Assembly (NCBI RefSeq): GCF_003334355.1
Contig: NZ_QOWP01000007.1
Length of the DNA stretch: 64,000 nucleotides
From: Escherichia coli
GTDB taxonomy: Bacteria; Pseudomonadota; Gammaproteobacteria; Enterobacterales; Enterobacteriaceae
Reading direction: 5' to 3' (one strand)
Each line of letters starts with the position of its first letter. Within the stretch, counting starts at the first letter, position 1. The position numbers and the translations under genes were made by a program. This document shows, piece after piece, positions 17,062-62,922 of this stretch. Under the pieces are notes generated by a model, which worked only from the letters and a program-made list of their open reading frames with translations, made no database searches and was not told the DNA's origin.

Positions 17062-20633
<3,572 letters not shown>

Positions 20634-28480: not shown

Positions 28481-28722
28481 GTCATTGCCTCTCATTGAAG
28501 TATGATGGCTATTTGACACTATCCTTTACCCACGCTCAACAGTTTAATAACCTGCCAGCAATAAGGGATGTTGTTTAACTTAAGTCAAAAAAATAGCGAA
28601 TTTTCCAACGACAAAAGCTAAATATCGCAAAAACCTCAGTAAAAATCTTGCTGGAGCTATTATTGCTAAGTAACATTTACCCCCTGAAGTTAATGGATCA
28701 ATCAAGAGAGATGTGGGCTGTA

Positions 28723-28848
28723 ATGAATCGTCTTATTGAATTAACAGGTTGGATCGTTCTTGTCGTTTCAGTCATTCTTCTTGGCGTGGCGAGTCACATT
28801 GACAACTATCAGCCACCTGAACAGAGTGCTTCGGTACAACACAAGTAA
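28723..28848 (+). CDS. blr: small membrane protein Blr (41 aa; beta-lactam resistance / divisome-associated)
   Basis: Within ORF track 28648..28848; MNRLIELTGWIVLVVSVILLGVASHIDNYQPPEQSASVQHK matches Blr; single transmembrane helix. Confidence 0.8.
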   Translation: MNRLIELTGWIVLVVSVILLGVASHIDNYQPPEQSASVQHK

Positions 28849-29120
28849 GCTCTGCACTTGTGGAGCGACATGCTGCCCGTCCGGGTGCATGTTTTCACTT
28901 GTCGGATATTAAACCAGGAATTTATTATCTTGTTCGATGTTGTTGGTGATTGTCAGGGATAGTAAAGCGCGTTACTCTTTTCAGAGCAGTTTTTCATCCC
29001 TGAATATTTGCCATCAGCGCATTCTTATTATTGTAATAACACAAGCGTTCACTTTTGGTGAAATTTTATCATCACTAATAATACCTACCCCTTTGGTATT
29101 AATTATTTTATGGACCTTTT

Positions 29121-29336
29121 ATGACTGTTCAGGACTACTTATTAAAATTTCGCAAAATCAGTTCACTCGAAAGTCTGGAAAAACTCTACGACCATCTTAA
29201 TTACACCCTGACGGACGATCAGGAACTGATCAATATGTATCGTGCTGCCGATCACCGTCGCGCAGAGCTGGTTTCTGGCGGGCGTTTGTTTGACCTCGGC
29301 CAGGTACCGAAGTCCGTCTGGCACTATGTCCAATAA
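29121..29336 (+). CDS. cnu: Hha/YmoA-family nucleoid-associated protein Cnu (YdgT)
   Basis: ORF track 71 aa; matches Cnu. Confidence 0.93.
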
Positions 29337-30520: not shown

Positions 30521-33121
<2,601 letters not shown>

Positions 33122-36138: not shown

Positions 36139-36144
36139 AGAAAA

Positions 36145-36175
36145 GGGGTAACACCGATTACCCCATTGATAACCT
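36145..36175 (+). terminator. putative terminator of the rsx-nth operon
   Basis: Hairpin ggggtaa-caccgat-tacccc immediately after the nth stop, followed by a moderately T-rich stretch. Confidence 0.45.
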
Positions 36176-36748
36176 TTCTTTATCCTCTTTTAAAACATCT
36201 TTTTAACGTCAATGATGCCATTGCTTAGCGTTATCATCAGGTAATCCGTTTGCGGATAACCAAAAATGCAGGTTAATTGTTTTTTTAATAGCGAAATTTT
36301 CTATTCATTCGTGATCAAGATCACGATGCTGTCGCAATGTAAAAACATTGCAAGAATCAGGTTAAAATCATTTAAATTTACACACGCAACAAATATTGAC
36401 CTACAAAACATTACACTGGCTATTTTTCAGAAACTGGACTATCTCACTAGTAAAAACGCTAAATAGCAGAACATATCGCCGTTAAGCCATCCCCCCCCTC
36501 TCAGTGCAGTGAAAAAATCTGCCGTTACGTTTTTTGAAAAATTTAACGCTGGATAACATTTCCCGGAATGGTTGAATTCCCCGCCTCAGTTATATGTAAC
36601 AGATTATTACAAAGGACTTGTCTGAAAGTGCAAGATAGTGAACATTACCTGCCGTTTCCCCTCCCACTATAACAATTGCGCGTATGTTTTTTATACATAA
36701 CGCGAGAAAGCACCCCCGTTAATATGGGATGTAAAAAAAGAGGTAAAA

Positions 36749-58081: not shown

Positions 58082-58414
58082 TGTCTTGCTTCCTCAAACT
58101 TCTTTACGGCAGTAATCTGACATTGTAGCGGGTCAGTGCGGCATCGGAAAATAACATTTTCATCACGCTTTTGCTATTTTATTCCTTTGCTCTATTTGTT
58201 GCATTTCAAATATTCGTTTCTTCTCTGATGCCGGCAAACTGGCGTATTTATAACCATTTTTAGCTTTCACTGCTGCATTTTTTTGCGCTCGCCAACGAAA
58301 CGTATTTTTTAACAATAAAAGCTATTAACTTTCTCTTCTTCTATGCATTAGAATCATCAAGTTTTGTAAATCAGACGCAGGCATGATAGACCTGCCTTAA
58401 CAGAGGGACGCTCA

Positions 58415-59960: not shown

Positions 59961-60110
59961 TTGCCTGAAGCGCTACGCTTATCAGGCCTACGCGGATCAT
60001 CGATGTAGGTCGGATAAGGCACTCGCCGCATCCGACAAGCGCTGCATGATACGACGCCTAACGCGTCTTTTCATGTCAACGCGGATGAGTCGTTAACACC
60101 GCATCCGGCA
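59961..60110. repeat. cluster of three REP elements downstream of sodB
   Basis: REP units gcctgaagcgctacgcttatcaggcctac, gtaggtcggataaggcactcgccgcatccgaca and gcggatgagtcgttaacaccgcatccggca. Confidence 0.85.
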
Positions 60111-61343: not shown

Positions 61344-61508
61344 GCCTTATCTCCACCTCTTCGCGTCATTACGCGATATTCATTAAAGTGGCGAAAGCAT
61401 GACAGCAATCACAAAAAAATGAAAATAACAAAAAGAGAAAACACTTTTGCCATTTTGCTAACAAACAGGAAGGAGATGCGAGGGAGAACGCGCTCCCTCG
61501 AGAGGAAA

Positions 61509-61598
61509 TCAGTGCAGCGCGGCAGTCAAACCCACGGCTACGATCAAACCGAGGACGATAATCGTTGTTACCAGTGAAAATTTAAGGTCGGTGCTCAT
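61509..61598 (-). CDS. ynhF: small membrane protein YnhF (29 aa)
   Basis: Not in the ORF track (too short); manual minus-strand translation gives MSTDLKFSLVTTIIVLGLIVAVGLTAALH, with RBS ggagaaaa upstream; matches YnhF. Confidence 0.7.
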   Translation of the reverse strand: MSTDLKFSLVTTIIVLGLIVAVGLTAALH

Positions 61599-61836
61599 CA
61601 AGTTTTCTCCTTTTTTATTACCACACAAAAAGTGATATTACGCATTTTTACACACTGTGATGAAAAAATCTCCCGTCATTTATAATGATAAGTGTTTTTA
61701 CCACTTCCCCTTTTCGTCAAGATCGGCCAAAATTCCACGCTTACACTATTTGCGTACTGGCCATTGACCCCTTCCTGACGCTCCGTGTCGTTTTTCCGGC
61801 GTACCGCAACACTTTTGTTGTGCGTAAGGTGTGTAA

Positions 61837-61852
61837 AGGCAAACGTTTACCT
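61837..61852. promoter_or_regulatory. PurR box (autoregulatory operator 1)
   Basis: aggCAAACGTTTacct matches the PurR consensus aCGCAAACGTTTgCGT, in the purR 5' untranslated region. Confidence 0.6.
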
Positions 61853-61896
61853 TGCGATTTTGCAGGAGCTGAAGTTAGGGTCTGGAGTGAAATGGA

Positions 61897-62922
61897 ATGG
61901 CAACAATAAAAGATGTAGCGAAACGAGCAAACGTTTCCACTACAACTGTGTCACACGTGATCAACAAAACACGTTTCGTCGCTGAAGAAACGCGCAACGC
62001 CGTGTGGGCAGCGATTAAAGAATTACACTACTCCCCTAGCGCGGTGGCGCGTAGCCTGAAGGTTAACCACACCAAGTCTATCGGTTTGCTGGCGACCAGC
62101 AGCGAAGCGGCCTATTTTGCCGAGATCATTGAAGCGGTTGAAAAAAATTGCTTCCAGAAAGGTTACACCCTGATTCTGGGTAATGCGTGGAACAATCTTG
62201 AGAAACAGCGGGCTTATCTGTCGATGATGGCGCAAAAACGCGTCGATGGTCTGCTGGTGATGTGTTCTGAGTACCCAGAGCCGTTGCTGGCGATGCTGGA
62301 AGAGTATCGCCATATCCCAATGGTGGTGATGGACTGGGGTGAAGCAAAAGCTGACTTCACCGATGCGGTCATTGATAACGCGTTTGAAGGCGGCTACATG
62401 GCCGGGCGTTATCTGATTGAACGCGGTCACCGCGAAATCGGCGTTATCCCCGGCCCGCTGGAACGTAACACTGGCGCAGGCCGCCTTGCCGGTTTTATGA
62501 AGGCGATGGAAGAAGCAATGATCAAGGTGCCGGAAAGCTGGATTGTGCAGGGTGATTTTGAACCTGAATCCGGTTATCGCGCCATGCAGCAAATCCTGTC
62601 GCAGCCGCATCGCCCTACTGCCGTCTTCTGTGGTGGCGATATCATGGCAATGGGCGCACTTTGTGCTGCTGATGAAATGGGCCTGCGCGTCCCGCAGGAT
62701 GTTTCGCTGATCGGTTATGATAACGTGCGCAACGCCCGCTATTTTACGCCGGCGCTGACCACGATCCATCAGCCAAAAGACTCGCTGGGTGAAACAGCGT
62801 TCAACATGCTGTTGGATCGTATCGTCAACAAACGTGAAGAACCGCAGTCCATTGAAGTGCATCCGCGCTTGATTGAACGCCGCTCCGTGGCTGACGGCCC
62901 GTTCCGCGACTATCGTCGTTAA
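61897..62922 (+). CDS. purR: purine repressor (LacI family)
   Basis: ORF track 341 aa; [33 protein letters not shown] matches PurR. Confidence 0.97.
61925..61940. promoter_or_regulatory. PurR box (autoregulatory operator 2, inside the purR coding sequence)
   Basis: gagCAAACGTTTccac about 30 nt into the purR ORF; purR is known to be autoregulated from operators downstream of its promoter. Confidence 0.55.

Follow-up and report, generated by a model that had tools for sequence, protein, structure and literature searches.

Does the short frame on the minus strand between ydhP and purR, at 61509..61598 of the window (the whole 64,000-nucleotide stretch of Escherichia coli DNA analysed here), encode a protein, and do the other long intergenic regions of the window hold small genes that a length-filtered ORF track passes over? 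The initial annotation had named this frame ynhF, a hydrophobic protein of 29 aa with a good ribosome-binding site (RBS), and had remarked that it was missing from the ORF track. This is indeed the case, as the 60-aa cut-off of the track lists only two plus-strand ORFs in the gap (74 and 66 aa), and with a cut-off of 20 aa the frame appears only as a 39-aa TTG-extended ORF. Below, we discuss the identity of the frame, its transcription, the search for further small genes, the overlapping match to an sRNA family, and the role of the encoded protein.

Identity and conservation of cydH

Read on the minus strand, the frame opens with an ATG at 61598 and closes with a TGA at 61509–61511, giving a hydrophobic product of 29 aa, MSTDLKFSLVTTIIVLGLIVAVGLTAALH. 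A Shine–Dalgarno (SD) sequence, AAGGAG, can be read at 61607..61612 on the same strand, 8 nt 5′ of the ATG. All 29 residues (29/29) are identical to chain H of PDB entry 6RKO, which is labelled 'Cytochrome bd-I ubiquinol oxidase CydH (Uncharacterized protein YnhF)', and the same sequence is present in eight PDB entries. The product also matches the NCBIfam equivalog NF033411 (CydH) with 50.2 bits against a cut-off of 30, residues 1–29 falling on profile positions 1–29 of 29. All 5426 complete E. coli genomes searched contain the 553-bp ydhP–purR gap, and the matches listed carry a cydH annotation at this place. There is practically no doubt that 61509..61598 (minus strand) is the already known gene cydH (formerly ynhF, also cydY), i.e., the gene for the single-transmembrane-helix subunit of cytochrome bd-I. 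Compared with CydH/CydY/YnhF of K-12, the protein sequence, its length, the location between ydhP and purR, the RBS and the promoter region are the same, and there are no differences at the protein level.

For the analysis of conservation, 80 purR-anchored loci were fetched, each from a different species of Enterobacteriaceae, the set including Escherichia, Citrobacter, Salmonella, Enterobacter, Klebsiella, Kosakonia, Raoultella and Franconibacter. A homologue opposite in strand to purR is present in every locus (80/80), always with a length of 29 aa, and the distance from the cydH start to the purR ATG is about 297 nt (294–301 nt in 79 loci and 287 nt in one). In the window as in all 80 loci, cydH is an orphan gene that diverges from purR and lies outside the cyd operon. 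In an alignment of 78 sequences, the frame is intact in 77 of the 77 others, and the differences are distributed over the three codon positions as 353:239:1286, which is a clear coding signature. Among the remaining ORFs of 10 aa or more in the ydhP–purR gap, none is intact in more than 20 of these 77 sequences. The SD columns of cydH are kept in at least 80–95% of 80 aligned sequences. On the far side of the gene, ydhP is missing between sodB and cydH in Salmonella enterica subsp. arizonae and in one Pluralibacter MAG and is kept in all other loci reaching that far, while the adjacency of cydH and purR is universal in the 80 species.

The window aligns to K-12 MG1655 (BLAST) in three collinear blocks with 99.4–99.8% identity. 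Around cydH, the host strain differs from K-12 by 0.2–0.6% of bases, a 73-bp REP-like insertion in the sodB–ydhP gap and a shorter rsxC repeat. The K-12 RefSeq annotation contains only two genes shorter than 50 aa in the matching stretch, blr (b4409) and cydH (b4602), and no RNA genes. The roughly 73 extra bp in the sodB–ydhP gap coincide with a match to the REP-derived Rfam family naRNA4 at 60008–60077, sub-threshold at 47.7 bits against a gathering score of 59.5; this segment probably represents a REP/BIME element that one strain has gained or another has lost. Two further differences concern annotated genes. Relative to K-12, the rsxC gene (about 32750–33075) lacks 192 bp (64 codons), in frame and within an internal tandem repeat, and its length varies between genera from 674 to 843 aa. 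In uidB (17062–18435, minus strand), a premature stop at 18211–18213 (W75* relative to K-12) is accompanied by L100P, and judged from the sequence this glucuronide transporter gene is probably a pseudogene in the host strain.

Transcription of cydH and flanking regulatory sites

Kim et al. (2012; PMC3415461, supplementary file 2) reported a transcription start site (TSS) at 1735607(−) of NC_000913.2, supported by 94 reads and assigned to ynhF. Via the printed 51-nt upstream sequence, this start maps to 61636 (minus strand) of the window, giving cydH a leader of 38 nt. A block upstream of the TSS, ACGCATTTTTACACAC on the plus strand, is at least 95% conserved in 80 sequences and reads TGTAAAAAT at −16 to −8; from its position relative to the published start, TGTAAAAAT (61644..61652, minus strand) is probably the extended −10 element of the cydH promoter. 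The purR start of the same study, 1735710(+) with 31 reads, lies at 61739 (plus strand) and gives a leader of 158 nt. The starts at 61636(−) and 61739(+) thus define back-to-back promoters, 103 bp apart. Within the purR leader, the palindromic PurR operator AGGCAAACGTTTACCT occupies 61838..61853, and its columns are invariant in the alignment; an operator sequence, AGGCAAACGTTTACC, has been given at 1737791 for ynhF/purR (PMC5110547).

On the 3′ side, a GC-rich hairpin, CGAGGGAG-CGCGUU-CUCCCUCG, lies at 61479..61500 (minus strand), 8 nt past the cydH stop, and is part of the centroid fold of the transcript. The terminator scan called no canonical terminator after cydH, and this hairpin is without a U-tract; it might act as a 3′ stabiliser or a weak terminator. 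Because a canonical terminator is absent 3′ of cydH, read-through into ydhP is possible. A 14-nt inverted repeat (61428–61441 versus 61599–61616), present in Escherichia species only, would pair the cydH SD region with a 3′ element if such read-through occurred. Pairing of the SD region with a complementary GUUUUCUCUUUUU element about 160 nt 3′ is striking in the fold of the window, but was rejected as a conserved feature: its z is about −3 in Escherichia, whereas over 78 species the median z is about 0, with values below −2 in 5 of the 78.

Between cydH and ydhP, at least 95% of 78 species keep a block at 61398–61450, which holds a CRP-like site, TGTGATTGCTGTCATG, at 61398..61413 (minus strand), itself conserved in at least 95% of sequences. 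This site probably belongs to the ydhP promoter region and would fit a CRP-dependent ydhP promoter; the TSS data of Kim et al. contain no ydhP start at 61398–61450.

The small membrane protein gene blr

The gene blr (28723..28848, plus strand; K-12 annotation b4409) encodes a 41-aa divisome-associated small membrane protein (MNRLIELTGW...QHK). It had been described as visible only as part of a longer, spurious ORF, and we find the same: blr sits inside a 66-aa TTG-started ORF (28648..28848, plus strand), and the frame from 28648 is spurious because its 5′ end lies outside the transcript that begins at 28684, the window position of the published blr TSS (Kim 2012, PMC3415461). The window ORF is K-12 blr and passes both family models, scoring 91.4 bits with NCBIfam NF033231 (cut-off 40) and E = 1.5e-25 with Pfam PF24673 (Blr_divisome). 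Homologues occur in eight of nine other genera, and the HIDNYQPPE motif, which follows the single TM helix, is conserved in eight genera.

The N-terminus of Blr is less uniform. In eight of the nine other genera, an in-frame ATG lies four codons before the annotated start, at the equivalent of 28711, and the other genera mostly start there. Five genera have Phe or Ile at the position of E. coli Met1 and therefore must start upstream, giving a Blr of 45 aa. The comparison suggests that the ancestral Blr was probably 45 aa long, and that the E. coli start is ambiguous, as the annotated N-terminus may be mis-set by four residues. Both the NCBIfam and the Pfam model start at or after the annotated Met. 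A minus-strand TSS inside the blr coding sequence, at 28751 (12 reads), was assigned to ydgJ with a 271-nt leader (Kim 2012, PMC3415461); since it lies within blr, its transcript is antisense to blr.

Search for further small genes

Every ATG, GTG or TTG ORF of 10–100 aa that starts in one of the 38 intergenic regions was taken as a candidate, 360 in number. Candidates were scored for an SD sequence and compared by tblastn with all fetched loci, an intact homologous frame being required. Comparators from other genera covered about 19–39 kb and 52–64 kb, including all four flagged gaps; elsewhere the RBS score alone was used. The top rank was taken by cydH, with 75 of 75 non-Escherichia matches intact, and blr was recovered, its 45-aa form being intact in six of eight. 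The remaining high counts belong to frames that overlap conserved genes or extend annotated ones. Such a scan on RBS and conservation had been put forward in the initial annotation as one way to check its suggestion that long gaps could hold further unannotated small ORFs or sRNAs; within the comparator range (about 19–39 and 52–64 kb), only cydH and blr were recovered, and no further intact, conserved intergenic ORF with coding substitutions was found.

The flagged gaps match the mapped K-12 gene ends, i.e., 28849..29120 for blr–cnu, 36139..36748 for nth–dtpA, 58082..58414 for grxD–mepH and 61344..61896 for ydhP–purR. That they contain at least one further unannotated functional small-protein gene or sRNA, outside cydH, is unlikely in our assessment. 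The current K-12 RefSeq annotates nothing further in these gaps, and a search against Rfam families at E ≤ 1 gave no credible match there, the sub-threshold matches to COG3860, the SodB thermometer and a trypanosomatid snoRNA being dismissed as chance. Kim 2012 lists no orphan TSS in them, the published starts all being assigned to flanking known genes. The suggestion of extra genes thus finds no conserved coding ORF to attach to, and the only Rfam family is STnc550, at the ynhF locus itself. The features that could still speak for such a gene are best weighed gap by gap.

The nth–dtpA gap is long in all 10 genera aligned (565–1171 nt by gene calls), and no conserved ORF was found in this alignment. 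SD-like sequences do precede some ORFs, e.g., a 46-aa ATG ORF with a 6-nt SD at 36326..36466 (plus strand), but this candidate was rejected, as the frame is intact in 0 of 9 other genera. The gap also contains strongly conserved nucleotide blocks that are otherwise unexplained and could favour a hidden gene; they include TATATGTAACAGATTATTACAAA and GATAGTGAACATTACCTGCCGTTTCCCCTCCCACTATAAC, which we take to resemble OmpR-type sites and a −10 element. A leader hairpin follows these blocks, and its sequence differs between genera. No start for this gap is contained in the TSS data of Kim 2012. In its distal half (36265–36565), several blocks are kept in 10 genera, without an ORF, an Rfam match or a listed TSS; a near-perfect CRP-like palindrome, CGTGATCAAGATCACG, is found at 36310–36325, with repeated [AG]AACAT motifs nearby. 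These distal blocks are probably extra dtpA regulatory sites. Finally, a hairpin 3′ of nth (36145–36164) has its U-tract on the minus strand (GGGGTAATCGGTGTTACCCC TTTTCTTC) and poorly conserved flanks, and this U-tract gives it the orientation of a terminator for a leftward transcript from the nth–dtpA gap, which is a further point in favour of an unannotated gene.

In the grxD–mepH gap, aligned over 70 species, the only frequently intact frame is an ORF of 17 aa near the grxD leader (58104..58157, minus strand), which has an SD-like sequence and is intact in 51 of 69 species. However, its differences (145:198:151) are without a coding signature, and its ATG lies 5′ of the two grxD starts, which map to 58113 and 58139 in the data of Kim 2012 (PMC3415461), those of mepH mapping to 58361 and 58400. 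On both grounds the candidate was rejected. At 58140–58165, the conserved block GAAAATAACATTTTCATC resembles a Fur box and overlaps the upstream grxD promoter, and the apparent conservation of a 17–20-aa frame near these positions is more simply explained by the promoter and this block.

The blr–cnu gap shows low nucleotide conservation and no conserved ORF in the cross-genus comparison. An 87-aa ORF (28937..29200, plus strand) that opens the cnu mRNA, beginning 1 nt after the cnu TSS, was rejected because the frame is closed in all nine other genera (9/9). The cnu start at 28936 gives a leader of 185 nt, and a promoter-like site at 28899–28928 fits it. In the rest of the ydhP–purR gap, a 52-aa plus-strand ORF antisense to cydH (61419..61577) was rejected, being intact in 2 of 77 sequences, as were the two plus-strand ORFs of at least 60 aa, those of 74 and 66 aa, which are intact in 2/77 and 0/77, respectively. 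The sequence of all four gaps resembles promoter, operator and leader DNA of the genes on either side, although strain- or condition-specific translated ORFs could still occur in them.

The match to the sRNA family STnc550

A second question is whether the cydH locus is, or also is, the regulatory sRNA STnc550, a 388-nt RNA that would begin beside the purR start codon and run antisense through the purR leader, with the ORF being incidental or part of a dual-function RNA. We consider this very improbable, even though the match to Rfam RF02081 (STnc550) at 61506..61896 (minus strand) is strong: with 396.5 bits against a gathering score of 48, it is the sole Rfam family at gathering score in the 64 kb, and the same full-length match with the same ends recurs in Salmonella, Enterobacter, Klebsiella and Franconibacter. 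The match covers the cydH coding sequence and the entire cydH–purR spacer, extending from a point 3 nt beyond the cydH stop up to the last base ahead of the purR ATG, and these limits are those of the gap and do not derive from RNA end mapping. No separate non-coding transcript bounded as in STnc550 was found, the E. coli TSS lying 260 nt inside the model and 38 nt before the cydH ATG, and Kim 2012 has no minus-strand TSS near the purR ATG. The last 90 positions of the model are the cydH codons; they are unstructured, and the variable (lower-case) consensus letters stand at wobble positions.

The family goes back to Sittka et al. (2008; Table S3), where a candidate in the purR/sodB gap was represented by 6 control and 10 Hfq co-IP reads. 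These cDNAs show that RNA from the cydH–purR gap was recovered, which would be in keeping with an sRNA; however, the Northern result was given as 'nd', and the enrichment with Hfq was only 1.7-fold. The Northern probe, JVO-3266, maps within the Salmonella cydH ORF and is complementary to the cydH mRNA. When the Rfam structure is placed on the 78-species alignment, only 71% of pair cells are canonical, several pairs being mostly AG, TC or GA, and no convincing covariation was found. The long-range helices are invariant, and what the model draws as a stable 'hairpin' is the operator palindrome of PurR (61838..61853). Our conclusion is that STnc550 corresponds to the mRNA of cydH together with the control region that cydH and purR share, and not to an sRNA in its own right. 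The window matches the whole model of this 'enterobacterial sRNA' family, but in contrast to a true sRNA, the model describes an intergenic stretch with the cydH coding sequence and the purR control region, without validated ends, a Northern signal or covariation.

A related proposal is that a long cydH isoform starts near 61896 under MarA/SoxS/RamA-type stress and runs antisense through the purR leader and promoter; this, too, we hold to be highly doubtful. Its promoter would overlap a marbox inside the first purR codons. The proposal is compatible with the data in that a ChIP peak in Salmonella and a weak −10 are in the right place. The peak, of MarA/RamA, is named 'purR<>ynhF', with a marbox at purR codons 6–10 (PMC10268841), and its counterpart in the window is GCTCGTTTCGCTACA at 61914–61928 (minus strand), inside the same codons. 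The weak −10, TATTGT, can be read after this marbox, directed towards cydH and just 5′ of the 5′ end of the STnc550 model, so that peak and −10-like sequence would equally suit the sRNA reading. Set beside this proposal is the nearly invariant cydH–purR spacing in the 80 species. If true, the long isoform would make control of the purine regulon responsive to respiratory or oxidative stress, or would itself be a dual-function RNA.

By comparison with cydH as a coding gene, a chance ORF in a promoter region has a negligible probability: the frame is extremely short, and chance yields 360 ORFs of 10 aa or more in the intergenic DNA of the window, but the solved structure, the 80/80 conservation, the third-position bias, the conserved SD and the mapped TSS argue that this one is not due to chance.

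Role of CydH in cytochrome bd-I

Cryo-EM and mass spectrometry of purified E. coli bd-I revealed YnhF as its fourth subunit; YnhF is produced at low oxygen, retains its formyl-methionine, and is encoded between ydhP and purR, outside the cydABX operon (PMC6853902). CydH binds between TM helices 1 and 9 of CydA, where it blocks the oxygen access to heme b595 that is used by the Geobacillus enzyme and occupies the site that holds menaquinone in mycobacterial bd (PMC8951039, PMC12648545). Annotation also long overlooked CydX, AppX and CydS, the other single-helix subunits of bd oxidases, which have about 30–37 aa and are likewise partners of CydA. CydX comes from the cydABX operon, binds CydA on its opposite face and is required for assembly, whereas CydH is the product of an orphan gene beside purR and sits at the b595-side oxygen or quinone access site (PMC8951039, PMC12648545).

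Taken together, cydH has a promoter of its own (start at 61636, 38-nt leader, probable extended −10 TGTAAAAAT), which stands back-to-back with that of purR, and translation begins at the ATG behind the strong AAGGAG site. The 29-residue product is a single TM helix; the solved structures place it in the cleft between CydA helices 1 and 9 of cytochrome bd-I, where it closes the oxygen entry route to heme b595, so that O2 reaches heme d via a narrower channel. The identity, conservation, coding signature and RBS in this scheme come from the present analysis, and the TSS and the place in the enzyme from published papers; we infer the promoter element and the function of the hairpin 3′ of the gene, and cydAB lies outside the 64-kb window.

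Implications

Both cydH and blr are known, annotated and characterised genes, and their presence in the window is no new biology. The names ynhF and blr in the initial annotation were correct, and so was its point that a length cut-off hides small genes, as both were missed at 60 aa. The locus serves as a methodological reminder in two respects. First, a 60-aa ORF filter hides two real genes, while the ORFs that it shows in the same gaps are spurious. Second, what is curated as an 'sRNA' family, STnc550, is in reality the mRNA of a small-protein gene together with its control region.
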